From Gammaproteobacteria bacterium (GTDB taxonomy: Bacteria > Pseudomonadota > Gammaproteobacteria > Steroidobacterales > UBA11654), in assembly GCA_029244925.1 (NCBI GenBank), contig JAQWQE010000051.1, positions 1 through 61,809 on the forward strand: a stretch of DNA of 61,809 bases, in the 5' to 3' direction. Shown here piece after piece: positions 21,460 to 48,423 of the stretch. Both the position numbers and the translations under genes were made by a program. The notes under the pieces were generated by a model. It was not told the DNA's origin. It saw only the letters and a program-made list of their open reading frames with translations, and ran no database searches. How positions within the stretch are numbered: the first letter of the stretch is position 1; the number at the start of each line of letters is the position of its first letter.

Positions 21460-22757
21460 TCGGATACCTCCACCCTATCTGATACATAATCCAGCCAAGC
21501 CTCTGCATTTCTTTTATTTGTATCCGTTCCAAGCTCAACAGCTTTAGTAAAAGACTCTACAGCCTCTTGATACTCATTTAATTCTGTATGCGCCATGCCT
21601 CTTAAAATATAAACATCCCCAATATTCTCAAGATTAAGATCTTTCAATGCTTGGGTTGTTGCCAACTTTATTCCATCCCAATCACCTTTCTCATTTAAAA
21701 GCATAGCTTTCTGAATATAAAGCTTGCCCTCATTAGTCAGTGAAGCCAAAACATCTATCACAGAAATTGCTTGATCAAATTCTCTAGCAGCTGTCCAAGC
21801 TCCTAAAAGTAACCTGAGATTATCCTCATCTGTATCGATTAAACCGGTATTCATATTTTTTTCGATTATTACAGCCGCCTGATAAGGTATTTCAAGATAC
21901 AAACTTAATCTTGCAAGATTCTCTATGGATTCTTTTTTGCTTAATGCATCATTTTTATAACCCAAACTTAAGGCCGCCAATGCATCAGTGTCTTTTTGCA
22001 TTTCCATATAAGCTCCAGCCATTGTTTCCCAATATTTCTCTTTTTCTGGCCAATACGTTGAGAGTGACTTTACAACATTGATGGCCTCTTCAAATCGTTG
22101 ATTTAAAAATAAAATAGCCACTTCAAGTTGCAACCAACTTTCTTTAGGTTTTAAGGATTTTTTATTCGCTATATGAATATAAGGAAGCGCTTCTAATGGT
22201 TCGCCTTTTTGAAAATAGGCTATGCCCATCATTATATATGATTCAGCTGCTGGATCAGCTTCATGCTTATAAAACCTCATCAGAGAATCAACAGCTAAAT
22301 CCCATTTTTCTTGTGAGCCGTAAAGGCTGGCAAGGTTAAAAACTGTACTTTGTTGCTGAGAAGAAGAAAGCCTATTTAGGTCCACACATTTTTTAAATGC
22401 ATCAATCGCAGCATCAGTATCATTTCTATTAACATGCACAAAGCCCATAAACTGATAAATAACAGCCTTCTCATAGACTGATAAATTCCAATCCAACATA
22501 ATTTCTAAATTTTTCAAAGCACCATCGTAATCTGAATCTCCGAAACGATCTGCTACACCTTCCAATTTATAATTAACATTACGGGACATCTGCTGCCCTG
22601 AATCAGGTCTTACAGAGACCACTCTGTCTTCCCTAAGGGGATGGTATAGCTCCAATTCTTGGGAAAGTAAATCAACTGAGAAAAAAGAAAGTAAAATAAA
22701 TAAAAATAATGCTGTCCTATTTCCAGGTAGTGAAATCACTTTATGTAACCTATGCAT
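21456..22757 (-). CDS. Exported TPR protein of TonB system (TtpD-like)
   Basis: Signal-like N-terminus, many TPR helices, LARLSLYLEIPYQAA, AEAWLDY end; directly after tonB. Confidence 0.78.
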   Translation of the reverse strand: MHRLHKVISLPGNRTALFLFILLSFFSVDLLSQELELYHPLREDRVVSVRPDSGQQMSRNVNYKLEGVADRFGDSDYDGALKNLEIMLDWNLSVYEKAVIYQFMGFVHVNRNDTDAAIDAFKKCVDLNRLSSSQQQSTVFNLASLYGSQEKWDLAVDSLMRFYKHEADPAAESYIMMGIAYFQKGEPLEALPYIHIANKKSLKPKESWLQLEVAILFLNQRFEEAINVVKSLSTYWPEKEKYWETMAGAYMEMQKDTDALAALSLGYKNDALSKKESIENLARLSLYLEIPYQAAVIIEKNMNTGLIDTDEDNLRLLLGAWTAAREFDQAISVIDVLASLTNEGKLYIQKAMLLNEKGDWDGIKLATTQALKDLNLENIGDVYILRGMAHTELNEYQEAVESFTKAVELGTDTNKRNAEAWLDYVSDRVEVSD

Positions 22758-23403
22758 TGATTTTAAATTCGAGAGTTTGAACGGCTTTTCTTTCAACAGG
22801 AACGCCATTAATAATTCTAGGCTTAAATTTCCATTTCAGTACCGCTCTAATAACATTCCTATCAAACATTCTTTTAGGTACAGATTCAATAATTGAGGCA
22901 CCTCTTACACTTCCATCAGAAGCAATAGTAACCTCAACAACAACATATCCCTCAATACCCTTAGCTAAAGCCTCTCTTGGCCACTGAGGATCAATTCTTA
23001 CGATTGGAAGTACATCGCCTTCAGCTAATGGATTGCCCTGCCAGTTGCCTAAAAAAGGTCCCCCTCCAGCAATGGTTGGTAAATCTATATTAGGAATCTC
23101 TATTTTAATTTTATTAACAGTTGGTTTTGCTTGTTTTTCAACAATCAGCTTGGGCGGTGGTGGTGGCTCTTTTGGCGGTGTAGGTTTTTTTGGTTTTACT
23201 CTATCTTTAAAACTTAGATTTTCATCGTCTTTAATTCTAATGAATTCCATGATTTGTCCTTCATTAGAAGCTCTGTAATCTTGTTCTCCAGAATCAATTA
23301 AAGCTTGCATCAAAAAAAATAGAGATAAAGAGATAATAACACCTAATATCATTGCAGATAGATATCTCATTTCAGGCTTAAACGTTAATGAAAGTGTATT
23401 CAT
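22750..23403 (-). CDS. tonB: Energy transducer TonB
   Basis: TM anchor, KPKKPTPPKEPPPPP spacer, PQWPREA..GIEGYV..WKFKP C-domain. Confidence 0.93.
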   Translation of the reverse strand: MNTLSLTFKPEMRYLSAMILGVIISLSLFFLMQALIDSGEQDYRASNEGQIMEFIRIKDDENLSFKDRVKPKKPTPPKEPPPPPKLIVEKQAKPTVNKIKIEIPNIDLPTIAGGGPFLGNWQGNPLAEGDVLPIVRIDPQWPREALAKGIEGYVVVEVTIASDGSVRGASIIESVPKRMFDRNVIRAVLKWKFKPRIINGVPVERKAVQTLEFKINA

Positions 23404-23408
23404 GAATT

Positions 23409-23810
23409 CTATTTTTCCTGTGCAGAAATAGAAACCTTAGCTATTCCGCTTAATCTTATCTGGTCCATAATGTCTATAACTATGCCTGTAGAAGCTAGTT
23501 CATCAGCAACAATTACAACACTGCTTTCAGGATTTTCTGCGTGAGCGGCTTCCATAAGAATTCTTACTGTTTGCAATTCAATAGGATTCTTATTCATCCA
23601 AATTTGATCATTAGGTGATATGGCTATAAGAATATTCCCTAATTCTGATCTGGAAGCGGTTTCAGCTTCTGGTCTATTGGGATCTATTCCTGTTTCTTTA
23701 ATAAAAGAAGTAGTTACAATAAAAAAGATTAGCATAATAAACACTATATCCATCATAGGTGTAATGTTTATTTCGCTATCCTCTTCTTCTCTTTTTCTTC
23801 TTCTTAACAT
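23409..23810 (-). CDS. exbD: ExbD (copy 2)
   Basis: INITPMMDIVFIMLIFFIVT. Confidence 0.92.
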   Translation of the reverse strand: MLRRRKREEEDSEINITPMMDIVFIMLIFFIVTTSFIKETGIDPNRPEAETASRSELGNILIAISPNDQIWMNKNPIELQTVRILMEAAHAENPESSVVIVADELASTGIVIDIMDQIRLSGIAKVSISAQEK

Positions 23811-23813
23811 GAT

Positions 23814-24215
23814 TTATTTTTGTGCTGCTAGTGAAACATTCGAAGCACCTGCTAACCTAGATTGGTCGATTACTTTAACTAAAAAACCAGCATCGGCATC
23901 TCTATCAGAAACAACCACTACAGAAGCTTGAGGTTTAAGTGCTAGATTTGTCTCAATATTTGCTCTCACTGCATCCAAGTTAACCAAACGATCTTGAACA
24001 AAAACTTCGCCTTCAGCTGATATACGAACAGAAATGACATCTGATTTCTTTTGTTCCTTAATTGGAGATTTGGTTGGTCTATTAACATCAATAGAAATTT
24101 CTTTAACAAAAGAGGTGGTAACTATAAAAAAAATGAGCATGATAAACACAATATCCAACATAGGAGTTATATTGATCTCACTTTCATCGGATTTCTTTTT
24201 GAATCGTCTTCTCAT
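23814..24215 (-). CDS. exbD: ExbD (copy 1)
   Basis: INITPMLDIVFIMLIFFIVT. Confidence 0.92.
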   Translation of the reverse strand: MRRRFKKKSDESEINITPMLDIVFIMLIFFIVTTSFVKEISIDVNRPTKSPIKEQKKSDVISVRISAEGEVFVQDRLVNLDAVRANIETNLALKPQASVVVVSDRDADAGFLVKVIDQSRLAGASNVSLAAQK

Positions 24216-24220
24216 ATTTT

Positions 24221-24841
24221 CTATTCCATCATTAAATGATCAGCCACTTTGTCGATCTCATCATCAGCTTTTCTTTTTAGTATATTAGCGATATATAAGC
24301 CCGATATAGCTGCCACCAAACCTGCCATAGTTGGAATCGTTGCCTGTGATACACCACTTGCCATTAATCTGGCATTTCCTGTACCAAAAAATGTCATCAC
24401 ATCAAACACTTTTATCATTCCTACAACGGTTCCAAGCAAGCCAAGTAAGGGTAGGATCTGCATCATTGTTTCAATAGTCAGGATGAATCTTTTTGAATTT
24501 ATTGATAATTCAGAAATCATTTGGTCTCTAATTTTTTTTGAGTACCAATCAATCGCTGGATTCATTTTATTCCATTCATCAGTAGTATTTTTTATACTCG
24601 AAGGTAGAACATAATAAAAAAACCAAAAACGTTCTATGATTAATGTCCACATGATTATAGTCACTAACAAAATACCCCATAAAACAGGTCCACCTGCTTC
24701 AAAAAAAGTTCTGATATCATCAAAAACAGAAATAAATATAATTAGGAGTAGAGCACTGATAAAAAATAATAAAAACCAGACCTCTTTACCTTTAAGGTAT
24801 TGCTGTGTTTTATATATCAGGGGATGTTTCATCAAACTCAT
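24221..24841 (-). CDS. exbB: ExbB/TolQ/MotA proton channel, short
   Basis: PLLGLLGTVVGMI, GVSQATIPTMAGL. Confidence 0.9.
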   Translation of the reverse strand: MSLMKHPLIYKTQQYLKGKEVWFLLFFISALLLIIFISVFDDIRTFFEAGGPVLWGILLVTIIMWTLIIERFWFFYYVLPSSIKNTTDEWNKMNPAIDWYSKKIRDQMISELSINSKRFILTIETMMQILPLLGLLGTVVGMIKVFDVMTFFGTGNARLMASGVSQATIPTMAGLVAAISGLYIANILKRKADDEIDKVADHLMME

Positions 24842-24850
24842 GATATGAAA

Positions 24851-26248
24851 TTACTTTTTAGTAGCATTTCTCGCGATTAAACCAGCGCTTTGTTCCTCAA
24901 GAATTTCGATCAAAGAGCCACTCCAACTCGTTAAAATGCTATGAAGAAAGACTAAGGGTATTGCAACTATCAACCCAAGCATTGTTGTGACTAAAGCTTG
25001 AGATATTCCACCAGCCATTAATTTGGGGTCTCCAGTACCAAAAAGTGTCAGCGCTTGGAAGGTTAAAATCATTCCTGTTACAGTACCTAATAAACCTAAC
25101 AAGGGAGCAACTGCAGCAAAAACTTTAATAATACTATGATACTTTTCTAACTTAGGAACCTCTTTCAATATCGCTTCGTCTACTTTCAATTCAAGTGATT
25201 CAATATTAATACCTTCATTCTTATCGTAAACAGATAAAATTCTTCCCAAAGCATTGTCTTGAGAAATACTCTCATTTGAAAGCTGGCGATCTATTGCCTC
25301 ACCTTCTTGTTTAAGAATCTTAAATCGCCAAACAGATAATGCTAAACCTATAAGCCCAATTAAAATAATAAAATATCCAACCGGTCCACCTGAACTAATT
25401 CTCTCACTAAGTCCCGGTGCCTGAATTAATAATCCAAGGATTTGCCCTCGACTAGGGTCAACAGCCATTGTTACAAAGCCCTCATCTGCATCAAATAAAT
25501 CATCTGCCATAGATCTGTATCTTCTTGCAGGTTGCCTAGCTAGAACTTGTAAGGTTTGTGTTTCTGGTACAAATTTCAAAAAGAAATCTTCAGTAATAGC
25601 ATTGAAGACTCCCACTCTAACAATTTCAGCATCAGATATAGATCCTCCAGGTAGGACAACTTGGCCATCAAAACGATCAACTCTTCCTGATTGAGTCATT
25701 TCTTCAAGCATAGACACGATTAAGGTCTTCATTTGATCAATTGAAGGTAATCCTTTATTTTCAACCAATTGTGTCAGAGATTCTTCTCGCTTAGGGAACT
25801 GGAGTGAGACTATTGAATTCTTAACTGTGGCTATAACTTCACCAGTAACTTGCCTAAAGACTCCAAAAAGCTCACCAAAGTTTCCAATACGAATTCTGAG
25901 TGTATCTCCAATTTCTTCAAGAGTTTTTTCATTATCTTCAAATTCTTTTTGCAACCTTACACTTCGATCTTCTTGATCTTGAAGTCTTTTCTTAGCATCT
26001 TTAAGTAGTGATTCTTGTTGATCTCTTGCCTCAATAAATTTTCTTTCTCTTTCGGTGTTTTCAATGCTGGTTTGAATACTATTGTTACGAGTTATTTCAA
26101 GCAATTTCTGCATTGTTTCAATGTTTCTCAGTTTCTCCAAAATGATAGGATCAATAACAACTTCCTTTTCCTCTTGAGCCACCAATTGCATATTAAAAGC
26201 CATCAAGACTACTAAAATAGATACATATTTTATTTTAAAGATTTTCAT
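24851..26248 (-). CDS. Large ExbB-family protein with periplasmic N-domain (TtpC-like)
   Basis: Signal peptide, coiled coil, GELFGVFRQ, VRVGVFN, DPSRG, then APLLGLLGTVTGMI..GGISQALVTT. Confidence 0.87.
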   Translation of the reverse strand: MKIFKIKYVSILVVLMAFNMQLVAQEEKEVVIDPIILEKLRNIETMQKLLEITRNNSIQTSIENTERERKFIEARDQQESLLKDAKKRLQDQEDRSVRLQKEFEDNEKTLEEIGDTLRIRIGNFGELFGVFRQVTGEVIATVKNSIVSLQFPKREESLTQLVENKGLPSIDQMKTLIVSMLEEMTQSGRVDRFDGQVVLPGGSISDAEIVRVGVFNAITEDFFLKFVPETQTLQVLARQPARRYRSMADDLFDADEGFVTMAVDPSRGQILGLLIQAPGLSERISSGGPVGYFIILIGLIGLALSVWRFKILKQEGEAIDRQLSNESISQDNALGRILSVYDKNEGINIESLELKVDEAILKEVPKLEKYHSIIKVFAAVAPLLGLLGTVTGMILTFQALTLFGTGDPKLMAGGISQALVTTMLGLIVAIPLVFLHSILTSWSGSLIEILEEQSAGLIARNATKK

Positions 26249-27069
26249 CTAACTACACCAGGAGCTTCAATAGGAAGTTCGATAAGATCAGGAGTCACTT
26301 GTTTTTTTGCAATTTTTAAGCCTTGCTTAACATAATCTGTATATTTTCTAGGAAGATCTTCCCATTCTTGTAACTCTTTATTCCAAAACCCAGTTTCTTC
26401 TTGATCTGGTGTTTGATAGGTAAGTGAAGTCCTACCTATTCTCAAGAAATCCACTTGTCTATTCTCGCCATCAATTTCAAGAAATCCAATATAGGCTTCA
26501 ATATCAGATCCATAACTAGTCTCAATCTGATAAGCATCCATGATTTGTCTGTATTTTTCAGAAACTGTGATATCAGACTGATCCATAATAATTCTCAGTC
26601 TAGCAATTCTTTGCTTTCTTTCATCTAATAGAAATGGAATATCCAGATCGATAAACTTATCAAGAGTATCAATACTCTCCAACATTAAGGGGACAATGCC
26701 TCTTTCTATAATTGCAAAATCAATCAATTGTTGATTAATGTCTTTGATTTGAAATTCCTGATCTGTAATCAATCTTTCAACGTATTCATTGTATGCAATA
26801 AGTCGATCAATCTGTTGCAAGACCAACCGATACTCGCCTAGCAATTCTTGTGTTTGATTAGATAGATTAGAAATCTTAACTTGTGATTGTTGTGAATCTT
26901 GTGATGTAGTGCTTTGAACTACAAGACTATCGCCCAATATATCAATTGGATTAGGCAATATTATTTCTTCTTGATTGTCAGACTGAGAATACGATGTAGC
27001 TCCTATAAAAAGGACTACAGTGGCTATAAGATATACATAGCTTTTCTTTTTTATTTTTTCAAGCATCAC
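26245..27069 (-). CDS. DUF3450 family protein (TtpB-like)
   Basis: Signal peptide, coiled coil, DIPFLLDER, EKYRQIMDAYQIE, VDFLRIGR; first gene of the TonB cluster. Confidence 0.83.
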   Translation of the reverse strand: MMLEKIKKKSYVYLIATVVLFIGATSYSQSDNQEEIILPNPIDILGDSLVVQSTTSQDSQQSQVKISNLSNQTQELLGEYRLVLQQIDRLIAYNEYVERLITDQEFQIKDINQQLIDFAIIERGIVPLMLESIDTLDKFIDLDIPFLLDERKQRIARLRIIMDQSDITVSEKYRQIMDAYQIETSYGSDIEAYIGFLEIDGENRQVDFLRIGRTSLTYQTPDQEETGFWNKELQEWEDLPRKYTDYVKQGLKIAKKQVTPDLIELPIEAPGVVR

Positions 27070-35550: not shown

Positions 35551-37758
35551 TTAAATAATTGATTGATTGTTGTTTCTCCTGACACCGACTAAGGATGGTT
35601 TAGGTGGATCATTGGCTTTCTTTGAAGGCCAATTTGAACCTATGGGTACTCTTCTTATTTGTTTGAATTCTTTACCGTCAGTTGTCTTAATTAAAAACTC
35701 CCTTTCTTCATAGGCCATATTTTTTCTAGTTCCATTAAACAGCCCTGGATGTTGTGGTGTAAGAAACAATGTTTTATGATCTCCGCTAAATTCAAGTCCA
35801 CAAAGCTCTGATTCTGAAGGACCAATAGCAAAAGGAATGGACAGCCCTATAAATTTACCAGACCTTGGTATGAGCCAGGCACTATTGTTGCCATATATTC
35901 CCCGAAGATTACTATTGGAGATATTGCTTCTGTTTTCAACCGTTTGATTTAATTTGTCGCTACCAACGTCCGTAATCATCCATAAATTTCCTTTTCCATC
36001 AATTTCAAGGTTATCGGGGTTTGCCCAACCGGATTTATCATCGGATGGTTCTCCCCCCATCAATAAGGTTTCCCAAGTAAAAGTTAATGCTGATGGCGAA
36101 GCATTAGTGTCTCTAATTTTTACTATTTGTCCTGGTTGATATGGATCCAAATCTCCACTATTACCAAAGATCTCTTTATTTGGACTGTCGCTCGAACTTA
36201 CATCAATTGCAGTAAAAGCAAAATAAAGTTCGCCACTCACATTATCAAACTCGCAATCCTCTGGCCTTGGACAACTCGTTGCACCAATTGCATTGGCTGC
36301 AAAATGGGCATCAATTAGAATCGCTCCTTGAATTTGTTCTTCATTCTCTCCACTATAAAGATCACCAAGTGTTGGTCCTAAATCAACATAATCATTCTCT
36401 AGAGTCTTATTGTCTTCATATGTTTTAACTCCACCTAGTTTTCGATCTGGTTGTGGCATAGAAACAATGGAGCCAATAACCTCGGATGGCAAAACAGGAT
36501 TGATATTTGTTGATGATGAAAGTGGTATCCATTTACCAGTTCCATCTGAATTAAATTTTGCTGCATACAATATGCCAGCTTCTAAAAGTTTAGAATTTAA
36601 TTTAGATTTTGGATCAGGGGTACTCTCTTCACTGATGAACTTATAAATATGACCGCCTTTTCTATCACACCCTGAGTACACAGCTATTGGCATATCCTCC
36701 TTTGCATTTACTGCAAATGCTTCATGAAAATATCGACCCAACATAGTGTGCTTAGTGCCAAAATCTTCTTTATCATTTGGATCCACTTCAACAGCCCAGC
36801 CATACTTATTGCCTGCCAGACCTAATATATTTCCAAAACCATTACCCATACTGGGTACAAAAGGCACAGAATTGGGAGGAAATGATGTGCCATCGCTTCT
36901 AACAGGTTCGGGCGTATGGCTTGCATAGTATTCCTCAGCGCTTAAAACAGTACCCCAAGGTGTAGTGGTGCCCGAACAATTCCAGTAACTTCCAAGACAC
37001 TTGTCCCCTAATCCATCTTCAAAGCCTTGCTTATTTTTCTTAATAAAAACAGAACGAGCAGGTCCAGTTGACTTCGATCTTTTTTCAGGGTCATTGATTG
37101 CTCCAGCAATGGATATTCGCCTATCTTTATCAGAATAGGTTCTGATCCAATCACCATTTTTCTTCTTTTTGATTGAAATAACTGATATTCCCATATCTTC
37201 AACAGCTTCCATAATAATATCTTTTATTTTATCTTTATCTGGATTGCTATTATCGATAGCCGAAAAATCAGAAATATAACCACCTTTTATATTTTTCAAA
37301 ACTTCATCGGGTAATTCATATTTCATCACCTTTGGGAAAGTTTCCAGATACGTCTTGAAGTTATCAAAATCTACACACTCATGATTAATAACTAAATAAG
37401 CTTCATCTTTGCCAGTCTCAACCAATCCAATATGATCATTATTGAACCCGTAACGAGAATCTCCAACTGGGTCTCCCCAAGAAGCAATGACATTATAAGT
37501 GAACCCCTCAGGTAGAATGAGATCATCTTCAATCTCATAAAAGGCATAAGATTCTAATTGCTCTTTAGGCTCTAAGCCAAAAGTAATGTGTGGAATAGAT
37601 AACTTTAATGGTTTCCAAGAATATTTTTTAATTAAAGCAAGCAGTATTTCACTGGCTTTCTCATTCATAGAATGAGTAAAAGCTAAGCCTGATGATGCCA
37701 ATGCTATGCCACCACCAAAAAATTTTATAAATTTTCTCCGATCAAATAGTGAATTCAT
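35551..37758 (-). CDS. phoX: Tat-exported alkaline phosphatase PhoX
   Basis: DRRKFIK Tat motif; NNDH, NHE, NCSG, TPWGTVLSAEE, KYGW, GRYFHE, RPED, NPDN, QHPG. Confidence 0.9.
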   Translation of the reverse strand: MNSLFDRRKFIKFFGGGIALASSGLAFTHSMNEKASEILLALIKKYSWKPLKLSIPHITFGLEPKEQLESYAFYEIEDDLILPEGFTYNVIASWGDPVGDSRYGFNNDHIGLVETGKDEAYLVINHECVDFDNFKTYLETFPKVMKYELPDEVLKNIKGGYISDFSAIDNSNPDKDKIKDIIMEAVEDMGISVISIKKKKNGDWIRTYSDKDRRISIAGAINDPEKRSKSTGPARSVFIKKNKQGFEDGLGDKCLGSYWNCSGTTTPWGTVLSAEEYYASHTPEPVRSDGTSFPPNSVPFVPSMGNGFGNILGLAGNKYGWAVEVDPNDKEDFGTKHTMLGRYFHEAFAVNAKEDMPIAVYSGCDRKGGHIYKFISEESTPDPKSKLNSKLLEAGILYAAKFNSDGTGKWIPLSSSTNINPVLPSEVIGSIVSMPQPDRKLGGVKTYEDNKTLENDYVDLGPTLGDLYSGENEEQIQGAILIDAHFAANAIGATSCPRPEDCEFDNVSGELYFAFTAIDVSSSDSPNKEIFGNSGDLDPYQPGQIVKIRDTNASPSALTFTWETLLMGGEPSDDKSGWANPDNLEIDGKGNLWMITDVGSDKLNQTVENRSNISNSNLRGIYGNNSAWLIPRSGKFIGLSIPFAIGPSESELCGLEFSGDHKTLFLTPQHPGLFNGTRKNMAYEEREFLIKTTDGKEFKQIRRVPIGSNWPSKKANDPPKPSLVGVRRNNNQSII

Positions 37759-37900
37759 GAAGTAATAGTTTTTATTATTTTGAGATAATTATTTCGTTGA
37801 GTTATTTTTTTTGGTTTTAAGAAATGTATTAGAATTAATTATTATTCTTTTTCTTCAAGCCAGAGATAGAATATCATATTACAACAATAATTAAGGGTGC

Positions 37901-38851
37901 ATGATGTCACAGATAGATATATTAATAAGCGAAGTTGGACCAAGAGATGGGCTACAAAGTATAGAAAGCATTATGTCCACTCAAGATAAAAAGAATTGGA
38001 TCCAAGCGGAAGCAAAAGCAGGCGTTCGAGAAATTGAAGTTGGTTCTTTTGTACCAGCAAAATTATTGCCTCAAATGGCTGACACAGCAGATCTAGTTCG
38101 CTATGCAAAAACAATTCCTAATTTAACTGTAGCGGCATTGGTGCCTAATTTTATAGGCGCAAAAAATGCAATTGATGCTGGTGTTGATAAAATGTGCCTT
38201 CCTCTGTCAGTCAGTGAAACGCACAGTAAGGCAAATCTTAAAAAAAATCACAGCCAAGTTCTAGAAGAAGTGAAAATTATTAGTCAATACATAAAAACCT
38301 TAGATGAGAATGACAGACCTGAATTTGAGGGTAATCTTTCAACAGCTTTTGGATGCACCCTTGAAGGCAAGGTCTCGGAAAAAGCTGTGCTCAGTTTGGG
38401 TGTAAAAATGATGGAATTGGGATGCAATGAAGTGGGTCTATCGGACACAACTGGCTATGCTAATCCTGCACAAATCAAGAGGCTTATTCGATTGCTTAAA
38501 AAAGAAGTTGGCAATGAAAATCTTACAAGTGTTCACTTGCATAATACTCGAGGATTGGGACTAGCCAATGCTCTTGCTGCACTAGATGAAGGTATTACTA
38601 CATTGGATTCTTCTCTAGGAGGAATTGGAGGTTGTCCCTTTGCACCGGGTGCCAGTGGTAATATTGTTACAGAAGATTTAGTCTTCATGTTGGAGGCAAT
38701 GGGTATCAATACAGGTATAGATATTGAAGCCCTGCTTGCAGTAAATCAAATGGTAAAAAAAGCACTCCCAAATGAAGAATTATATGGATTCACCATTGAT
38801 TCAGGCCTGCCTAAAGGCTATGCAGACGGTGGATGGGGTTTAACTGACTGA
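37901..38851 (+). CDS. HMG-CoA lyase family (DRE-TIM metallolyase)
   Basis: EVGPRDGLQ, AFGC, LSDTTG, HLHNTRG, GGIGGCPFAPGASGN. Confidence 0.9.
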   Translation: MMSQIDILISEVGPRDGLQSIESIMSTQDKKNWIQAEAKAGVREIEVGSFVPAKLLPQMADTADLVRYAKTIPNLTVAALVPNFIGAKNAIDAGVDKMCLPLSVSETHSKANLKKNHSQVLEEVKIISQYIKTLDENDRPEFEGNLSTAFGCTLEGKVSEKAVLSLGVKMMELGCNEVGLSDTTGYANPAQIKRLIRLLKKEVGNENLTSVHLHNTRGLGLANALAALDEGITTLDSSLGGIGGCPFAPGASGNIVTEDLVFMLEAMGINTGIDIEALLAVNQMVKKALPNEELYGFTIDSGLPKGYADGGWGLTD

Positions 38852-38856
38852 ATAAA

Positions 38857-39906
38857 TTAAAATTTATACTTAAAGTCTAATAAAGCTTTCTGATAATCAA
38901 TTTCCATCTTCTTTTTATTATCAAACCAAGAAAAATCTAAAATTACTTTTTTTGATAAAGGGTAACTAATAATCATTTGATGCCCCTTATGACCAGCTCC
39001 ACCACCACCAAAAGTAGAATCCACTAAAGCGCCAAATACTGCATTCTTCTCAACGTCTTTGTATAAATAAGTTACTTTCCAAAGTTGATTAAAATTGAGC
39101 CTAATGCCAGCCTGAAATCCTCTCTCATGATCCTCAGCATCTTTGTTATTAACCATATCTATAAAAAATAAAGTAGGAATTGATCGGGTACCAATTGTTG
39201 CTTTTATTTCTGCGGAAATATTCGTGATGTTAAAATTGTTTAAATAATTACCATTAGCATCTATCGGATTTCCAAAAATCTTACCATTCCAAGTTATCTC
39301 TGAGGCAGGCCTACCTTTAATTTTATCGAATTTATATTGTGCGAGAGCTACCTTAAAAGAGGTTGTATTATTAAAAGAGTTAGACAATCCAATTTGAAAT
39401 CCATCAATGGATACTGATTCAGATGATTTCTTGTCATAAGAGAAAACGCCTAATGTTGAAAAGTACATACCTTTTTTAAATTGATAAACCATACCTTCAG
39501 GATTAAAGTCTCCATCGAAGATAACCTGACTTTTATTCGATCTAAAAAATGGATTTGATTGCTTCCCGATAACCAATTTTGAATTTTGATCAATAGCATA
39601 ATCAATATAGAATTGATCCATGCCAATATCACTCAAAGAAAAATCATGGCCAAGTGTTTGATTCGCGGATGTTGAATTCTCTTCAGCGGTAGCAAGCCTA
39701 ATTTTTATTTCCAGTTTCTCAGTTGGTTTATACTCCGCACCGAGCCTGACTCTAATCCTATTTTGCCTTCGTTTAGTGCCTTTACTCTCATCATCTGTAT
39801 ATTCATAACGATAACGAAAATCATAATTTACCTTAACTGTGTTTTGCTCTGCAGAAACATTGAAGAAGATGAGAGTTGTGATTGCAGCAACTAAGAGTTG
39901 TTTCAT
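38857..39906 (-). CDS. Putative outer-membrane porin (Porin_5-like)
   Basis: Signal peptide, DFRYRYE..RIRVRLG..IRLAT..SANQTL, FDGDFNPEG, C-terminal YKF beta signal. Confidence 0.8.
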   Translation of the reverse strand: MKQLLVAAITTLIFFNVSAEQNTVKVNYDFRYRYEYTDDESKGTKRRQNRIRVRLGAEYKPTEKLEIKIRLATAEENSTSANQTLGHDFSLSDIGMDQFYIDYAIDQNSKLVIGKQSNPFFRSNKSQVIFDGDFNPEGMVYQFKKGMYFSTLGVFSYDKKSSESVSIDGFQIGLSNSFNNTTSFKVALAQYKFDKIKGRPASEITWNGKIFGNPIDANGNYLNNFNITNISAEIKATIGTRSIPTLFFIDMVNNKDAEDHERGFQAGIRLNFNQLWKVTYLYKDVEKNAVFGALVDSTFGGGGAGHKGHQMIISYPLSKKVILDFSWFDNKKKMEIDYQKALLDFKYKF

Positions 39907-39950
39907 ATATCTACCTACAAGATATTTTCCAAATAATTGTTTACTTTACC

Positions 39951-41222
39951 TTACTGTCCAAAAAATCCTTTCAGAGCAAAAAAGAAAAGAATTGAAAGTC
40001 CAGCACCCACCGGTAATGTCACAATCCATGAAAGAATAATTTTCCCCACTACGCCTAAATTAATTGCACCTATTCCTCGAGCCAAACCAACACCTAGTAC
40101 TGCTCCAACTAGTGTATGAGTAGTTGATATTGGGAGACCAGTACCTGAAGCTATGACAACAGTTCCAGCAGCAGCTAATTCAGCTGCAAAACCTCTGCTT
40201 GGAGTAAGTTCAGTAATAGATCTTCCAACGGTCATCATGACTCTGTATCCCAGCATACCCAAACCCAAAACAATACCAGTAGCTCCAACTATTAAAATCC
40301 ATCCTGGTACTATTGATTTAGCAGCAACTTCTCCACCACTATCTATCACAGAGAATATAGCTGCTAATGGGCCAATTGCATTAGCTACATCATTGGAACC
40401 ATGAGCAAAAGCCATTGCACAAGCAGTGAAGATCATCAAGACGGCAAATATTCGTTCAACACCATCAAACATTGCTCCATTTTTTTCTTTTTTAGTATCA
40501 TCAATTTTTTGTAATAAGAGTGTCCCCATTAAACAAATAATGAGTGCAAAAACAAGAGACCAGGCAATGCTTTGTGAAGTTGAGAAGCTCAAGCCAACAT
40601 GCTTAAGCCCTTTGAGGAAAGTAACCATAGACACAACAAAACCTGCAAGGAACATGTACATTGGTACATACTTCTTAGCACTCATAAAAGGATCTTCTGT
40701 TTGTAGAATTAACTTTTTAACACTAGTAAACAATAGAAAAGATATCGTTCCCGCCATAATCGGTGACACCACCCAACTTGCAACGATGGATGCTACTTTT
40801 GGCCATTGCACTACATCGAATCCAATTCCAACAACTGCGAATCCAACTATCGCACCGACAATAGAGTGAGTCGTTGAAACCGGCCAACCAAAATAGGAAG
40901 CAATCAAGAGCCATATGCCGGCTGCCAATAAAGATGCAATCATACCAAAAACCAAAAGCTCTGGGGTTTGACTGATTACACCTGAATCAATTATGCCTTT
41001 TCTGATGGTTGATGTAACCTCACCACCAGCAAGATAGGCGCCTGCAAATTCAAAGATACAAGCAATTAAAACCGCTTGCGTTACAGTCAATGCCCTTGCA
41101 CCAACCGATGTGCCCATTGCATTTGCAACATCATTTGCTCCAATGCCCCAGGCCATAAAAAAGCCACAAAAACAGCCCATAATTAGTAAAACTTGACCAT
41201 AATCTGCTATAACATCAATCAT
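39951..41222 (-). CDS. PiT family inorganic phosphate transporter
   Basis: GANDVANAMGTSVG and HGSNDVANAIGP signatures; PVSTTH/PISTTH. Confidence 0.95.
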   Translation of the reverse strand: MIDVIADYGQVLLIMGCFCGFFMAWGIGANDVANAMGTSVGARALTVTQAVLIACIFEFAGAYLAGGEVTSTIRKGIIDSGVISQTPELLVFGMIASLLAAGIWLLIASYFGWPVSTTHSIVGAIVGFAVVGIGFDVVQWPKVASIVASWVVSPIMAGTISFLLFTSVKKLILQTEDPFMSAKKYVPMYMFLAGFVVSMVTFLKGLKHVGLSFSTSQSIAWSLVFALIICLMGTLLLQKIDDTKKEKNGAMFDGVERIFAVLMIFTACAMAFAHGSNDVANAIGPLAAIFSVIDSGGEVAAKSIVPGWILIVGATGIVLGLGMLGYRVMMTVGRSITELTPSRGFAAELAAAGTVVIASGTGLPISTTHTLVGAVLGVGLARGIGAINLGVVGKIILSWIVTLPVGAGLSILFFFALKGFFGQ

Positions 41223-41238
41223 TTCTTATTCCTTATAA

Positions 41239-41916
41239 CTATTTAGATACCAATCTTATTAATACATGCCCAACCGTTTGAGAAATATCAGCCAGCGAAC
41301 CAATCTTATTAATCACATCATATAAGAACATCACATCCACAGGCGGGTATTCCTTCTCTACTTTAAAAAATTCTGTTCTTAAGGCTATTTCCAATTCATC
41401 ATTCTCTTTTTCAATGTGTTCCAACTCTGCAACAATGTCTCCAAGCAAAGATGCATCGGATGCACTGAAGCCGGTCCTTTGCATTTGATCTACTTTTTTT
41501 ACTGCATTGGAAGCTTGATTAGCAGCTTTAATAGCGGCATTAGTGCAATTAATAAAACCTTGTTTAATTTCTTCTGGAATCATCATTTGACGTCCAATCA
41601 TAACCCCTGAAATATCTTTCGCGGCATTGGGTATTCCATCCATAGTAAAAACTAGGTCCAGAAGATCTTGCCTTGAAACACTCATGAAAAGTGATTTAGG
41701 AAGATTGTTACGAATATTATTCTTTATATCATCAGCTTGATTTTCCAATGAAACAATTTCCTTTCTAGACGCTCTAGCAGCTCGCCAGTCATTCTTAGAG
41801 ACCGCTTTTATAAATTTCTGTAGTTCTTTACTGGCTCTATTGCCAATTTTCATATGCTCCTGTAAACCAGAGAATGGAGACTCCGCGAGCATTCCTAAGA
41901 AAGTATCATTACCCAT
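41239..41916 (-). CDS. DUF47/TIGR00153 PhoU-like PiT accessory protein
   Basis: SPFSGLQEH, ENQADDIK..LPKSLF, PVDVMFLY..IGSLAD; upstream of PiT. Confidence 0.9.
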   Translation of the reverse strand: MGNDTFLGMLAESPFSGLQEHMKIGNRASKELQKFIKAVSKNDWRAARASRKEIVSLENQADDIKNNIRNNLPKSLFMSVSRQDLLDLVFTMDGIPNAAKDISGVMIGRQMMIPEEIKQGFINCTNAAIKAANQASNAVKKVDQMQRTGFSASDASLLGDIVAELEHIEKENDELEIALRTEFFKVEKEYPPVDVMFLYDVINKIGSLADISQTVGHVLIRLVSK

Positions 41917-41972: not shown

Positions 41973-42443
41973 TTATTCAGTTGTTTCTTTATAAAGATAA
42001 GCCAATAAGTCACTTCGGTCATTTTTATTTTTCATTCCAGAAAAAATCATTTTATTGCCTGGTATCAATTCGTAGGGTTTTTCTAACCAACGATCAAGGT
42101 TATTAACATCCCATATAAGATTTGAATTTGTTAGTGCTGTCGAATAAATAAAGCCATCACTTTTTGCTGCCTTAGAATTAAAAACTCCAAAGAGATTAGG
42201 CCCTATCTTGTGAGGTTCATTTTGTTTAAGTGAATGACAGGCTCTGCATTGAAAATAAAGCTTTCTTCCTCTTTCAGCATCCCCAGTAGTAAGAGCTATT
42301 TCAGATTCGGGGTTTAAAAATAATTTTTCTGTTTCTTGATTGTTGGCTTCATCCATTTTTTGATCGCAACCGATACAGATTACAACCATAAGAATTACTA
42401 ATTTTTTAGTAGAAGCTATCAAGATACAAGAACCCCTCAACAA
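41973..42443 (-). CDS. Class I cytochrome c (c2-like), probable lipoprotein
   Basis: CRACH, KIGPNLFGV, PGNKMIF (axial Met); hydrophobic N-terminus ending CIGC. Confidence 0.9.
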   Translation of the reverse strand: MLRGSCILIASTKKLVILMVVICIGCDQKMDEANNQETEKLFLNPESEIALTTGDAERGRKLYFQCRACHSLKQNEPHKIGPNLFGVFNSKAAKSDGFIYSTALTNSNLIWDVNNLDRWLEKPYELIPGNKMIFSGMKNKNDRSDLLAYLYKETTE

Positions 42444-42486: not shown

Positions 42487-43350
42487 TTATTCATATTCCA
42501 CAGGCCCACTATCCTCATTCATATTAAAAGATGAAAGTTCAGAATGTTCATTCATCATTCTTGAGTAATAATCACTAGGTAGTTGATCTATAGTATCTAA
42601 TTTCACACCTGAGGCATGCCACAAAGTATGTCCCTCAATATCACTCATGTCCATCCATGGCAACCATGGCATAAGAATAGTGGCTGTAAACAAACTAGAA
42701 AGAGAAGTAACGCTTTGATCCAAAAATTCATCTAATGGTGCAAACATGGTTAATCGCTGCAACCGAGGTTCCGATAATCCAGGTGGGTATGCAGTTTGAT
42801 TGTGCATCCAAACTGTTTTGGGGCCAAAAGTCCAATCTAAGATAAGAGGTTTATCCGGCATCTGATCAATGAAAGATGTAGGCCTTGCTCCCATTGAAGA
42901 TATATTCAATCCTCTACCTAAACTGGCTTTTCTAATATTCGGTAGAACTTGGTTCACTTTCCCAGTAAATGGATTTTCATACTCACGAATCATTTCATTG
43001 GAATCAATATCTCTAAAAAAAGTTAGCATATTCCCAAGAATTTCATACGAACCATCTTCTTTTGAAACCACCTTGTAGCTCTCCATGCCTTCAATATTAA
43101 CCATCGGTATTGGTTGTTCTGAGCCCTTCTGAGCATAAAGGGTACCGTTATAGTGCCATGGTGTTTGATCTATTTCACCTATATTGGATTGCATTCTCAT
43201 TAAGTTGATTAAATTGTTAAGCGGCAAATTTAAATCTGGAACATTCTTAGGAATCGCTCCATTCATGGCACCTGATGATTGATTGCTCGCCAACAAAGTT
43301 GCTGCGCCCAACCCTAATAAAAAATCACGCCTTAGAATTTTTTCTGACAT
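42487..43350 (-). CDS. Tat-exported DUF1838-like protein
   Basis: LRRDFLL Tat motif; NIEGME, FFRD..YENPFTG, PWLPWMDM..G motifs recalled for DUF1838. Confidence 0.72.
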   Translation of the reverse strand: MSEKILRRDFLLGLGAATLLASNQSSGAMNGAIPKNVPDLNLPLNNLINLMRMQSNIGEIDQTPWHYNGTLYAQKGSEQPIPMVNIEGMESYKVVSKEDGSYEILGNMLTFFRDIDSNEMIREYENPFTGKVNQVLPNIRKASLGRGLNISSMGARPTSFIDQMPDKPLILDWTFGPKTVWMHNQTAYPPGLSEPRLQRLTMFAPLDEFLDQSVTSLSSLFTATILMPWLPWMDMSDIEGHTLWHASGVKLDTIDQLPSDYYSRMMNEHSELSSFNMNEDSGPVEYE

Positions 43351-43365: not shown

Positions 43366-45168
43366 TTATCTTGATTCTATATGTTCAATGACTTTATCTG
43401 CAAGAAATTCTGCAACTAATTGATGGTCTTCTTCGACTCTCCACATAGACCAAGTCCCATTATATTGTGACTGAGTTGGTTCTGTTTGACTTGGGGATCC
43501 CATTGTTGGATCGTAACCCAAGTGTCCAAAATGTGAAACATCAAAAGCCAATGAAGGATCTAGATCATTTCTTTTTTGATCCAATGCTGTTTGTCGCTGT
43601 GGTGGGTAAGGTTGATCGTTTTGACACCCTCCCATTTCAAAGCAGCAAGCTTCTGTTACTGATGGATCTTGCATACTCTTGCATACAGGATTAACCCAAA
43701 CACCCCAATAATCTGCAAATGGATGTCCAATTTTGGGATAGGTTTTAAAATCCAACACATTGATTTTAATCCAATTCATATAACCAATTTCTTTAGCGAT
43801 TTGATTGGGAACTTCAACTAAGTTCAAAACTGAATTTTCCATAATTTGAGGGAAGACAACAACGATATGATTCACATTATTTTTTCTTAATTGATCCAAT
43901 GCCTCCCAATATCGATACCCCCACTCTCCCTTTGGTCTCTCATTATCTGAATCGTAAAGAATGTTATAGCCAAGATTTTCACCCCTCATTTCTCTTGATC
44001 TCTCGATTGATGAGGAAGTTGATCTCCCTACTTTTATCTTTTCATTTTTCACCATATCTCCAAACCAACCACCCAATATATTTTTCGATTCCATTTCAGG
44101 GTATTTTTTGAGCAATTGTTTTTTAATATTCTTATTTAAAATCAATGTGTCATTTATTTTTGGATCAAACACTTCATTCAATGAAAGAATTCCATGATTA
44201 ATCATCAATACACCAGTATTCTCGATTGGAACCTCACTGTTGAGCTCCAATTCAATACCTTTGATGTGAAAGTCTGCCAAGCGAATATCTCTGATCACAG
44301 GATTGGGGTTATCCTTATAATTAACCAACGGGTTTGAAATGGGTTCTCCCAATGATCGAGTCCAGTTTTTAGGCTCTGTAGGAAAAGAATTCAACATAAG
44401 TTCATTTGGATCGTTTACCCATTCTAGTGAAATAGAAGTTTTATTTGTTTTATTAAATTTCTCTATAATTTTCTTTGCTTCAATAAAAACATCGAATGTT
44501 TTTGAGAATCTTGCGCCTGCTGTAGTTAAGTCAATCATAATCATTCGATCAATGTCGAGCTTAAGCAGTCTTTCAACAGGACCATCAACATTGTAACGAT
44601 CCGCTTCACAAGCATTCCAAGATGGATCGCCTGCGCCACAATAATTAAGCCTTACATCATTACCAATCTTTGAGTAATAAAGATTTCTTGGATTCACTAA
44701 TTCATATATATCAGGACTGATCCAAGTCATTTTATCCACAATAAAGTCAACGCCCATATTTTTTTCTTTATCTTGAAGTGACAGAGCTAATTGTTCTGTG
44801 AGAATTCTTTTTGATTCAGGGTAAGGATCAACACCACCAATACGTTCAAATTCAAAAGAATATTTACCTAATTCTTTAGGTGCATTTCCTGCTTTAAGAA
44901 TTTGAGACCAATATTCTGGATTCCATATTATTTGATTGTAAACCGGACTATTCTGATCGTATGAGAAAATCTGCATGGTGGATTCCCAAGTTTCTTTTTC
45001 TCCAAATGTTTCAAAACCACCATGGGAAACTACTAAAACTCCTATTCGTTCTCCTTTAATGGAATGATTTATTTGATCGCTATATTCAGAACAACCAGAA
45101 ATAAAAAAAATTAGGCTAATAGGGATTATAAACTTTAATTTGAGTGCAACTCTCGCCTTTAAGATCAC
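43366..45168 (-). CDS. Lipoprotein with ferrochelatase/class II chelatase-like fold
   Basis: Lipobox ISGC; GVLVVSHG, ERIGGVDP (cf. IGGxSP), GVLMINHG, HIVVVFPQIMENSVLNLVEV. Confidence 0.6.
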   Translation of the reverse strand: MILKARVALKLKFIIPISLIFFISGCSEYSDQINHSIKGERIGVLVVSHGGFETFGEKETWESTMQIFSYDQNSPVYNQIIWNPEYWSQILKAGNAPKELGKYSFEFERIGGVDPYPESKRILTEQLALSLQDKEKNMGVDFIVDKMTWISPDIYELVNPRNLYYSKIGNDVRLNYCGAGDPSWNACEADRYNVDGPVERLLKLDIDRMIMIDLTTAGARFSKTFDVFIEAKKIIEKFNKTNKTSISLEWVNDPNELMLNSFPTEPKNWTRSLGEPISNPLVNYKDNPNPVIRDIRLADFHIKGIELELNSEVPIENTGVLMINHGILSLNEVFDPKINDTLILNKNIKKQLLKKYPEMESKNILGGWFGDMVKNEKIKVGRSTSSSIERSREMRGENLGYNILYDSDNERPKGEWGYRYWEALDQLRKNNVNHIVVVFPQIMENSVLNLVEVPNQIAKEIGYMNWIKINVLDFKTYPKIGHPFADYWGVWVNPVCKSMQDPSVTEACCFEMGGCQNDQPYPPQRQTALDQKRNDLDPSLAFDVSHFGHLGYDPTMGSPSQTEPTQSQYNGTWSMWRVEEDHQLVAEFLADKVIEHIESR

Positions 45169-46752: not shown

Positions 46753-48423
46753 TTAATCAATGGACCACATAGATTTATCATCAGGTAAAAACTCTATCGT
46801 GGAATTTTCTAACAATAGATTCATCTTCTCGGCATAGTTCTCTTTCCCATTGCCTATCCAACTAAAAATTGTAATTTCTGTTTTAATATTTGCTAGATCG
46901 GGTTGAATATCATATCCGATAAGATCCTTTGCAACTAGCTTTAATGCTTCACCAGATTTTAAGGCATCGACTGTTCTTTCATGAACTAAACTGGGGTCAA
47001 TATCGGGTTCTCTTTTTAAGGCATTAGATTCTTTTGCCTGATGCCATGGGAAAAATAATTCACTATCACGAATAAAATACCAGGCCTTCAATAAATGTTC
47101 TCCAAAAACAGATGGAGATAAATCAGGTGCATAATGCTCTGAAAAATCTTCTCGTTCTTCTTTGTTCAGGCACCAAGGTTCTATCAACAGCAATCTTTTA
47201 ACATTCAAATCTGTGTGCTGACTCAATAAGAGAGCAATTGAACTTGATACACCTAATGAGGCGATCTCTATATTCTTTATTTCAATTGCTTTTAAAGCCT
47301 CAACAATCATTTGCATTATAGACTGAGGTGAATAATTAGTAAGATGAGTGGGTCCTGTCTCGCCATGTCCTGGAAGATCAATGAAGATTTTTCTATACTT
47401 TGGATTAAATCTATCACTCATATGAATCATGCTTTTTGACGATTGAGAGAAATCATGCAAAACCAACATAATTTCATCTGTTTCATCTCCATCGCTATAA
47501 TAAAACAATGGTCCTTTTGAAGTCTGGACAAAATTCTTCCTACCAACATTCATGCTGCTATCATCTTGATTCAGAGGACTATTGGATTCATTGGAAAATT
47601 GTTTAAAAATTTCTCTTGCTCTATCTTCCAGTGAAGGAGTGTCTGGTAATAGCTCAATTGTTACACTTTTTGATAGTTGCTTTAATCGTTTTGGGTGCTC
47701 TGCGATTGGGTCTCCTGCATAATTGAGCAGAAAGGTAGGGGTATTAATTTCTTGGATTCGCTCTCTGGAAGGATACATGAATGCTGCTTGATATGCGGTT
47801 TGAGATTTTCCAGTCGATCGCAATAGATCCAAGACATAAGGTTGAATGAATTTAGGATCAGGTAAATCAATATTCAATCTCACTTCTTTTTCTTTTTGAA
47901 ACCAAGGAAAGAAGATTAATTGTTCTCTGATGCGAGCCCATACCCAAGGTAAATGAGTGCCTTCTGGTGTTGGGGTAAACCACTGGGTATAATGTCGAAG
48001 AATTTTTTCTTCTTCATCTGGCTCTAGAACCACAAGTCCATTCACAACCACTGCATTGCAAAGATCAGGGTAGAGCCTAGCCATTTCTGCTGCAATAATA
48101 GCTCCAGTATGAAAGCCATAAATGCAAATTTGGTCCAAACCTAGGGCATCAGTAAATTCTTTTAGAGCTTCTGCATACAAAGTTATATCTGGTGTCAGAG
48201 TTTCAATATAATCGGATAAACCAAAGCCAGGTGTATCGGGTGCAATCACGGTAAAATCATTGGCAAAATCTTCAATAATTGTGGCTTTTTCAGCGGAAGA
48301 AGTTGGACTTTGATGCAACAACAATAGAACTGGGCCTGCTCCAGAAATACGATAATGAACTTGTCGAGAGTCTAGATTGACGAAACGTCTTTGAATGGAT
48401 ATATTTTCAATAAGCTGATACAT
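46753..48423 (-). CDS. Tandem alpha/beta hydrolase-fold protein, non-canonical
   Basis: LLLLHQSP..APDTPGFGLSD..YGFHTGA and LVLHDF..IDLPGHG; repeated W-x2-IR-x4-FFPW motif. Confidence 0.82.
   Translation of the reverse strand: MYQLIENISIQRRFVNLDSRQVHYRISGAGPVLLLLHQSPTSSAEKATIIEDFANDFTVIAPDTPGFGLSDYIETLTPDITLYAEALKEFTDALGLDQICIYGFHTGAIIAAEMARLYPDLCNAVVVNGLVVLEPDEEEKILRHYTQWFTPTPEGTHLPWVWARIREQLIFFPWFQKEKEVRLNIDLPDPKFIQPYVLDLLRSTGKSQTAYQAAFMYPSRERIQEINTPTFLLNYAGDPIAEHPKRLKQLSKSVTIELLPDTPSLEDRAREIFKQFSNESNSPLNQDDSSMNVGRKNFVQTSKGPLFYYSDGDETDEIMLVLHDFSQSSKSMIHMSDRFNPKYRKIFIDLPGHGETGPTHLTNYSPQSIMQMIVEALKAIEIKNIEIASLGVSSSIALLLSQHTDLNVKRLLLIEPWCLNKEEREDFSEHYAPDLSPSVFGEHLLKAWYFIRDSELFFPWHQAKESNALKREPDIDPSLVHERTVDALKSGEALKLVAKDLIGYDIQPDLANIKTEITIFSWIGNGKENYAEKMNLLLENSTIEFLPDDKSMWSID

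Follow-up and report, generated by a model that had tools for sequence, protein, structure and literature searches.

A previously undescribed family of putatively exported ferrochelatase-fold proteins from bacteria that appear unable to make haem

What use would a bacterium have for a ferrochelatase-fold protein that bears an export signal and lacks the catalytic glutamate? This question is raised by a gene located at 43366..45168 (minus strand) of a 61,809-nt stretch of DNA from a member of the Gammaproteobacteria (contig JAQWQE010000051.1 of assembly GCA_029244925.1); the whole of that stretch is referred to here as the window. The protein encoded by the gene, 600 amino acids in length, is designated family A. 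It is proposed, tentatively and at rather less than an even chance, that family A acts in the periplasm as a dechelatase of haem auxotrophs that scavenge pigments. That it is a periplasmic tetrapyrrole-handling protein of some kind, all tetrapyrrole readings being taken together, is considered highly probable. The initial annotation had offered a periplasmic dechelatase or tetrapyrrole binder as a candidate function, and the genomic context now lends that suggestion support, in the form of HemE loss, co-occurrence with an RCCR-like gene and a neighbouring barrel that resembles bilin lyases and nitrobindins.

Fold, family and export of the protein

The gene begins with GTG, which shares bases with the TGA stop of the oxidase gene upstream (GTGA), an arrangement that supports the assigned start. 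All of the motifs quoted in the initial annotation were found in the order claimed: GVLVVSHG (H49), FERIGGVDPY and GPVERLLKLDIDRMIMIDL, followed by GVLMINHG (H325) and FPQIMENSVLNLVEV (L448, E452).

Family A matched no Pfam or NCBIfam family, and no PDB ferrochelatase was found with it by phmmer or by a 65-row profile. Three of four homologues tested reached PF00762 only at E values of 0.005-0.14, and the best homologue scored 16.2 bits against a cut-off of 27 for HemH/CpfC. Profile-profile comparison with HemH yielded an E value of 1.6e-4 for the N-lobe and non-significant values of 0.08-0.3 for pieces of the C-lobe. The sequence-only match to ferrochelatase is weak, and it is the predicted structure that settles the fold. 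An AlphaFold model was built from 65 dereplicated homologues (of 121, near-duplicates and fragments having been left out), with a pLDDT of 92.0 and a pTM of 0.91. The top 40-odd Foldseek matches to this model were all ferrochelatases, the best with an E value of 9.7e-9. VIA-align gave a Z score of 24.2 against Listeria monocytogenes CpfC, with a root-mean-square deviation of 2.6 Å over 299 aligned residues; the range for CpfC was Z 23.7-24.2 and 2.6-2.8 Å, covering both lobes. The score against human FECH was about 22. SirB (Z 16.1), FetB (15.1) and periplasmic CbiK (15.1) followed, and the first unrelated fold appeared at 9.2. It is apparent that the two-lobed chelatase fold proposed at the outset, two α/β lobes with a cleft, is borne out by the model. 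On this structural prediction, family A is a member of the class II chelatase superfamily, but not of HemH.

The relationship to the known families may be specified further. With HemH/CpfC/FECH (PF00762; PDB 9f0f, 1ak1, 1hrk), family A shares the two-lobed fold over residues 38-600, but at only 14-15% identity. It differs in having a signal peptide, six invariant cysteines and about 270 extra residues, which are present as insertions, two of which hold the cysteines. It is also predicted to be exported, rather than to serve haem biosynthesis in the cytoplasm or on the inner face of the membrane, and its hosts mostly lack HemE. SirB, CbiX and CbiK (PDB 5zt7, 4ccs, 2xwp) have the same superfamily fold (Z 12-16), but are cytoplasmic siroheme and B12 enzymes without the HemH-type helical insertion that family A possesses. 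Desulfovibrio CbiK had been cited initially as a rare exported class II chelatase. This is correct, but FetB/IhtB of Porphyromonas gingivalis (PDB 9b86) is a second known case; like D. vulgaris periplasmic CbiK (2xvx), it is an exported haem-binding class II chelatase. FetB occurs in a haem auxotroph, as family A is predicted to do. Both proteins are of the CbiK type, about 260 amino acids long, and align with family A at Z 14-15, versus 24 for the HemH type; family A had no Pfam match to the CbiK family profile at E≤1.

Homologues of family A numbered 657 at E≤0.001, and the best 120, at 46-98% identity, were all unnamed or 'hypothetical'; one homologue is encoded by Oceanicoccus sagamiensis (ARN73128.1 / WP_157117825.1). 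A wider search produced 149 representatives, none of which bridged to a named family. In the Atlas, family A belongs to an unnamed cluster of 706 members, to which clusters of ferrochelatases come nearest (0.84-0.85), values that serve only as a lead. No description of family A was found in the literature within reach of our search, most subscription papers lying outside it. Family A is a real, previously undescribed family. Several longer homologues (P0125, P0126, P0127, P0141 and P0145) possess C-terminal β-rich domains, and in P0127 several CxxCH motifs occur in an additional region at the N-terminus; the extra modules matched nothing in Pfam at E≤1e-5.

The protein begins with a signal peptide and a lipobox, ISGC, ending at Cys26 (45091..45168, minus strand), with residues 2-24 forming a helix in the model; in the query, the lipobox cysteine follows a hydrophobic signal. 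In the survey of the 65 homologues, a hydrophobic N-terminus was found in 62, and the remaining three appear to be truncated at the N-terminus. A loose lipobox pattern was present in 51, and several had no lipobox cysteine at all. Judged from these sequences, export is conserved and the lipid anchor is optional, not obligatory; the initial description of an exported lipoprotein therefore holds for the export signal, but not for the lipobox as a fixed trait of the family. Contigs from four marine metatranscriptome runs gave patchy cover of the operon, from which level, strand and a single transcript could not be read, and no evidence was drawn from them.

Residues of the predicted cleft

Equivalences between family A and ferrochelatase residues were taken from the profile register and the secondary structure of the model, not from an inspected three-dimensional superposition. 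In a HemH profile compiled from the carriers, these positions are located by two human variants, M76H and E343D. Conservation is given for the 65 aligned homologues, and all coordinates are on the minus strand. The two histidine motifs noted initially are both invariant (65/65). His49 (45022..45024) lies at the end of strand 1, in the position of human Met76 (the Met76/Tyr13 position of ferrochelatases), on the face opposite the catalytic histidine. His325 (44194..44196), which comes after the first strand of the C-lobe (318-324 in the model), corresponds to the catalytic histidine, human His263; the profile match that gives this register is non-significant alone, but is consistent with the secondary structure of the model. 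The absence of the catalytic glutamate was likewise confirmed, as Leu448 occupies the position of human Glu343, a residue of the pi-helix, in 65/65, in a C-lobe register whose E values are non-significant alone. Glu452, four residues on, aligns with the next glutamate of ferrochelatase and is retained in every homologue (Leu448 to Glu452, 43813..43827), and Ser446 aligns with human His341, also in 65/65.

In human ferrochelatase, Met76 lies opposite His263, iron enters on the Met76 side, and Glu343 and His341 make His263 a stronger base; the E343K variant is inactive and co-purifies with porphyrin (PMC9133952). By comparison with the model, family A would keep the acid-base histidine, lose the glutamate that activates it and gain a histidine on the metal face, and His49 and His325 are predicted to face each other across the porphyrin cleft.

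The C-terminal C-x11-CC-x5-C cluster noted initially (C496, C508, C509 and C515; 43624..43683) is invariant (65/65) and is located in a long insertion that precedes the final strand; its CC-x5-C portion was also kept in all nine of the distant homologues checked. A further invariant pair, Cys177 and Cys187 (44608..44640), in an insertion of the N-lobe, had been overlooked; it is conserved in 65/65 and is likely to form a disulfide. An exported location favours disulfides over iron-sulphur (Fe-S) clusters. Since family A appears to be exported by a Sec-type route, an Fe-S role for the cysteine cluster is unlikely and was set aside on that argument, and the six cysteines would fit three disulfides better. 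About 100 alignment columns are invariant at 46-77% identity, many of them occupied by charged residues, which gives family A an enzyme-like appearance. Among the invariant residues is an Arg/Glu cluster at 389-397 that has no ferrochelatase counterpart.

Haem synthesis and pigment genes in carrier genomes

The loci examined were the best 80 of 178 confirmed genome loci, together with the window. The carrier set consisted of the window's genome (1.58 Mb, 79% complete) and 50 of the 80 locus genomes, 51 in all. As an order-wide control, 201 genomes of the host's order were used, which overlap in part with the 51 and are not independent of them. Some searches were confined to five carriers, namely the window's genome and four single-chromosome assemblies.

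In the host's order, family A was found in 54 genomes and HemE in 140, but both in only five; HemE was missing from 49 of the 54 carriers and present in 135 of the 147 non-carriers. Among the 51 carriers, two had a full-length HemE and one more a weak partial match, with none in the 12 alphaproteobacterial carriers. In the order to which one of the latter belongs, HemE was detected in 146 of 150 non-carriers and was absent from that carrier. The HemE proteins of the five genomes with both genes included one with a twin-arginine translocation (Tat)-like leader, two with triplicated copies beside flavin adenine dinucleotide (FAD) reductases, and one of canonical appearance. Atypical HemE genes in carriers are found at L119-L120, L130 and L129:9810-11000; the triplicated copies are accompanied by FAD reductases, HemD and PNPOx-like genes.

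A siroheme route was considered as the reason for the missing HemE and was rejected, its decarboxylase family being present in 1 of 51 carriers. HemB was found in 28 of the 51. In the five carriers searched no canonical HemF or HemJ was detected, COX1 was present in all five, HemS was found in one, and no haem oxygenase scored above the cut-off in any. From its gene content, the host appears to be unable to make its own haem.

A canonical HemH match was obtained in 18 of the 51 carriers and none in the other 33. These figures bear on the possibility that family A is a forward chelatase, which inserts iron or a different metal into scavenged porphyrin in the periplasm, replaces HemH and feeds cytochrome assembly. 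The 33 carriers without HemH, taken with the presence of COX1 in all five carriers searched, would suit such a role, as would the histidine at the end of strand 1, which SirB and CbiX use for metal. A periplasmic salvage line could be formed from the Tat-like-leader HemE of one carrier and an unnamed, signal-bearing HemF-like family; the latter was detected in 23 of the 51 carriers, one of which had 17 copies, and in none of 29 non-carriers. FetB, moreover, inserts Mn and Co without being HemH. Replacement is weakened, however, by the 18 carriers that retain HemH, and the glutamate needed for ferrochelatase turnover has been lost from every aligned homologue; this explanation is regarded as improbable. 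A lipoprotein-type member of this HemF (coproporphyrinogen oxidase)-like family is encoded in the window's genome on contig C58 (L152:7312-8211, minus strand).

In many carriers there is also a second family of exported proteins resembling HemH, which are about 500 amino acids long and have an N-terminal anchor, a strand-1 histidine, the catalytic histidine and an aspartate in the position of the glutamate. This family is represented by L099-L110 (e.g. L103:1312-2784, minus strand), sometimes in tandem, and was not found in the window's genome. Family A showed no detectable relation to family B (E 0.049). A putative third chelatase-like family comprises three paralogous proteins of the window's genome (L131:6156-8363, minus strand; contigs C13, C78:3-1835 and C67:12797-13864). 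The C13 copy has a signal-like start, ferrochelatase-like motifs and a tyrosine in the position of the catalytic histidine, and its gene lies beside those for a TonB receptor, an MFS carrier and UbiD. This candidate was set aside: it depends on three motifs found in a single copy, the profile tests gave non-significant results, and one row of the alignment is probably in the wrong frame.

Yearly chlorophyll production amounts to about a billion tonnes, and its degradation by prokaryotes is barely known, according to a 2026 bioRxiv preprint (10.64898/2026.03.19.712979). In the host's order, an RCCR-like gene was present in 50 of the 54 carriers, as compared to 12 of the 147 non-carriers, and in none of 14 control genomes. 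Seven of those 12 also lack HemE. Six genomes of one genus (G119, G128, G190, G214, G231 and G245) have the RCCR-like gene but neither HemE nor family A, so the pigment-scavenging profile may extend beyond family A. The RCCR-like protein of the window's genome, whose host is non-photosynthetic (L163:1453-2280, minus strand; contig C10:3918-4745), matched PF06405 above cut-off (E 8.4e-13), and its sole PDB match was Arabidopsis RCCR (3agb; E 7.6e-8); a small ferredoxin-like open reading frame lies about 2 kb away. Bilin-reductase-like genes were found in two of the five carriers. A common fold unites HemF, the bilin reductases and RCCR, and heterotrophs also have sequences related to them (PMC10151467). 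The RCCR-like gene lies beside canonical hemH in 8 of the 18 carrier hemH loci, all from one sponge-associated group (L084, L085, L087, L088, L089, L092, L094 and L095). The genomes with these pairs lack HemB and HemE, and the three HemH proteins that were aligned are 66-67% identical to an alphaproteobacterial HemH.

The preprint reports that homologues of RCCR and of the SGR dechelatase are mutually exclusive in prokaryote genomes, which leaves RCCR-type genomes without a known dechelatase. The pathway that it proposes, together with the plant PAO/phyllobilin route, shares with the carriers an RCCR-like reductase, Rieske oxygenases, hydrolases and heterotrophic hosts without SGR. Its main text makes no mention of ferrochelatase, the periplasm, Woeseia, Steroidobacter or Gammaproteobacteria. 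The carriers differ from that pathway in that the Rieske enzymes tested miss the PaO model and the hosts lack HemE. Dechelation is favoured because the site resembles a ferrochelatase in reverse and because RCCR-like genes are present in the hosts, the carriers searched having yielded neither a haem oxygenase nor SGR, in conjunction with the reported exclusivity of RCCR and SGR. The lack of a haem oxygenase match, and the presence of HemS in just one of the five carriers, would mean, by reference to the plant route, that ring opening needs a metal-free substrate.

The proposed sequence of events is as follows. A TonB-dependent receptor would bring pigment into the periplasm, where exported esterases would trim it. 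The cleft of family A would then close on the ring. His49 would withdraw the metal on one face; on the opposite face His325, which the loss of the glutamate would have left a weaker base, would protonate the pyrrole nitrogens, and the two histidines would thereby carry out ferrochelatase chemistry in reverse. In this manner Mg would be removed from chlorophyll derivatives, and possibly Fe from haem. The phototoxic free base might be held by the DUF1838 barrels described below and imported by MFS carriers, after which opening and reduction of the ring would fall to a Rieske oxygenase and the RCCR-like reductase. Dechelation would be a likely early step of a predicted, previously undescribed pigment-eating lifestyle. 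The reaction proposed for family A, removal of the metal from a tetrapyrrole, is shared with two other systems. SGR Mg-dechelatase (PF12638) belongs to an unrelated family; family A has no Pfam match and its model matches class II chelatases. The HmuS haem de-chelatase of Bacteroidota also needs a histidine and serves haem auxotrophs but, unlike family A, is a CobN-like class I protein that requires NADH (PMC12583661).

Several observations weigh against dechelation. The carriers cluster in four or five families, and the counts given above are therefore not independent events and were not subjected to a statistical test. The bacterial RCCR profile was matched in 36 of 39 gammaproteobacterial carriers, but in none of the 12 alphaproteobacterial carriers and none of 29 alphaproteobacterial non-carriers, and only one of the 80 loci had an RCCR-like gene less than 10 kb away from family A, by a weak match. 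SGR was not found in the five carriers, but the search matched no control either, so that its absence is not established. None of the ten Rieske oxygenases tested reached the PaO model PF08417 (best E 0.18, with VanA_C scoring better), and the PDB relatives of the carriers' Rieske enzymes are generic. The chlorophyllase-like protein of the window's genome scores better to PAF-AH than to Chlorophyllase. FetB, long called a reverse ferrochelatase, displayed no reverse activity on haemin and instead inserted Mn and Co. Two histidines placed face to face might retain a metal instead of giving it up and, by analogy with the porphyrin-trapping human E343K variant, loss of the glutamate may simply make family A a binder.

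These last points lead to another interpretation, that family A is a non-catalytic periplasmic or surface receptor, which clamps scavenged haem or some other metallo-tetrapyrrole between its two histidines, hands it on and so supplies a haem auxotroph. It has in its favour that the link with HemE loss holds in both classes, which that with the RCCR-like gene does not, and that FetB is a haem-binding lipoprotein. Many environmental haem auxotrophs have no known haem acceptor (PMC11139205), the fold of family A is near those of periplasmic binding proteins (Z 7-9), and distant homologues are extended at one end or the other by modules that look extracellular. Family A has no transporter as a regular neighbour, however, and the genes around it are mostly for enzymes; the protein is mostly single-copy and very highly conserved, and the many-copy DUF1838 barrels would be more natural carriers. 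A receptor is a possible but doubtful alternative, and a close competitor of the dechelatase.

Were dechelation correct, an exported enzyme with a reversed site would fill the dechelatase step of RCCR-type genomes and make that step directly testable, and family A would represent a natural HemH-type fold run backwards. Even as a binder, family A would constitute a new class of haem or pigment receptor in free-living haem auxotrophs. The genome profile of the carriers also provides a clue for the cultivation of these uncultured lineages, namely to supply haem and pheopigments. A broader proposal, which is speculative and on balance doubtful, is that Proteobacteria of several unrelated lineages, from marine, sediment, sponge and lake habitats, live as specialists on tetrapyrroles, have given up haem synthesis and are equipped with a periplasmic pigment line of rewired haem-pathway folds, in which family A would be a new class of Mg/Fe-dechelatase that supplies the missing step of RCCR-type breakdown. 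Such a line would comprise two or three exported ferrochelatase-like families, exported HemF- and HemE-like proteins and up to about 50 DUF1838 proteins.

Neighbouring genes and DUF1838 barrels

Family A lies within a same-strand run (minus strand throughout). The first gene encodes a tandem α/β-hydrolase (46753..48423; family in 18 of the 81 loci) and the second an FAD-linked oxidase (PF01565/PF02913; 45165..46736; family in 22 of 81), which is start-stop coupled to family A. Downstream, separated from family A by 15 nt, is a Tat-type DUF1838 protein with a predicted calycin-type β-barrel (42487..43350), and then a single-haem cytochrome c (41973..42443), whose family is found in 11 of 81 loci, all from close relatives. 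The other recurring neighbours were exported SDRs (16 loci), MFS carriers (16), Rieske oxygenases (13), a chlorophyllase-like hydrolase family (10, in five of them directly downstream of family A), CpcT/CpeT-like (8), nitrilase-like (7) and luciferase-like (7) proteins, and HiPIP (5, directly downstream in each). The chlorophyllase-like and CpcT/CpeT-like neighbours would be in line with the dechelatase proposal. In the window's genome, a paralogue of the FAD oxidase with 41% identity appears as two open reading frames (L137:2336-3937), as does a DUF1838 gene (L132:15549-16417), which may be due to a frameshift or to faulty assembly.

The redox neighbours would suit a different chemistry, in which the cleft holds a tetrapyrrole for side-chain modification or for opening of chlorin ring E, or in which a haem ligated by the two histidines passes on to cytochrome c or HiPIP the electrons that it receives from the FAD oxidase. 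The inserted residues and the Arg/Glu cluster described above, for which ferrochelatase has no counterpart, would be compatible with it. These neighbours vary by lineage, however, and are absent from many loci, and no signal peptide is evident in the FAD oxidase, which among PDB entries is closest to generic enzymes of the GlcD/VAO type. Such a chemistry is held to be improbable.

DUF1838 proteins were encoded within the locus in 42 of 80 cases, and directly downstream of family A in 29, from about three clades. All 51 carriers had DUF1838 matches, from 4 to about 50 each, and the 14 control genomes had none. A model of the protein (pLDDT 87) adopts a calycin-type barrel, its best fold matches being to BFA1 (Z 10.3), the bilin lyase CpeS (9.5), DUF3598 (9.3) and nitrobindin-type barrels (8.7-7.4). 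These scores are middling, a Foldseek search yielded no clear match, and there is a likeness to unrelated cyclases as well. The window's DUF1838 protein has a Gly-His-x2-Trp-His stretch on the last strand of the barrel, which is the strand that bears the haem ligand in nitrobindins. Prediction of a complex of family A, its DUF1838 neighbour and haem gave a score of 0.00, which is not evidence either way. A pigment-holding role would be the first functional lead for DUF1838, which appeared in the literature search only in two papers on Streptomyces antibiotic gene clusters.

This literature association, and the likeness of the barrel to cyclases, would also be in keeping with recruitment of the family A fold for a non-tetrapyrrole ligand (a metal ion, an aromatic or an N-heterocycle), the genomic links then reflecting ancestry and a catabolic lifestyle. 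The window's small genome is rich in UbiD decarboxylases, Rieske oxygenases (four) and flavin oxygenases, amidohydrolases, TonB receptors and MFS carriers, and the closest relatives of its UbiD, oxygenase and similar expanded families are generic, as they are for most expanded enzyme families of the carriers. A ligand of this kind would leave unexplained the loss of HemE in two classes, and also the RCCR-like, bilin-reductase-like, HemF-like and second exported HemH-like folds of the carriers, and is considered very improbable.

Two further gene runs were observed in the window. Downstream of the family A run, at 35551-41916, lies a phosphate-related run of DUF47, a PiT transporter, a putative porin and a Tat-type PhoX phosphatase, which accompanies family A in close relatives only. 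A TonB energy system, consisting of DUF3450, two ExbB, two ExbD, TonB and a tetratricopeptide repeat protein, is encoded at 21456-27069.

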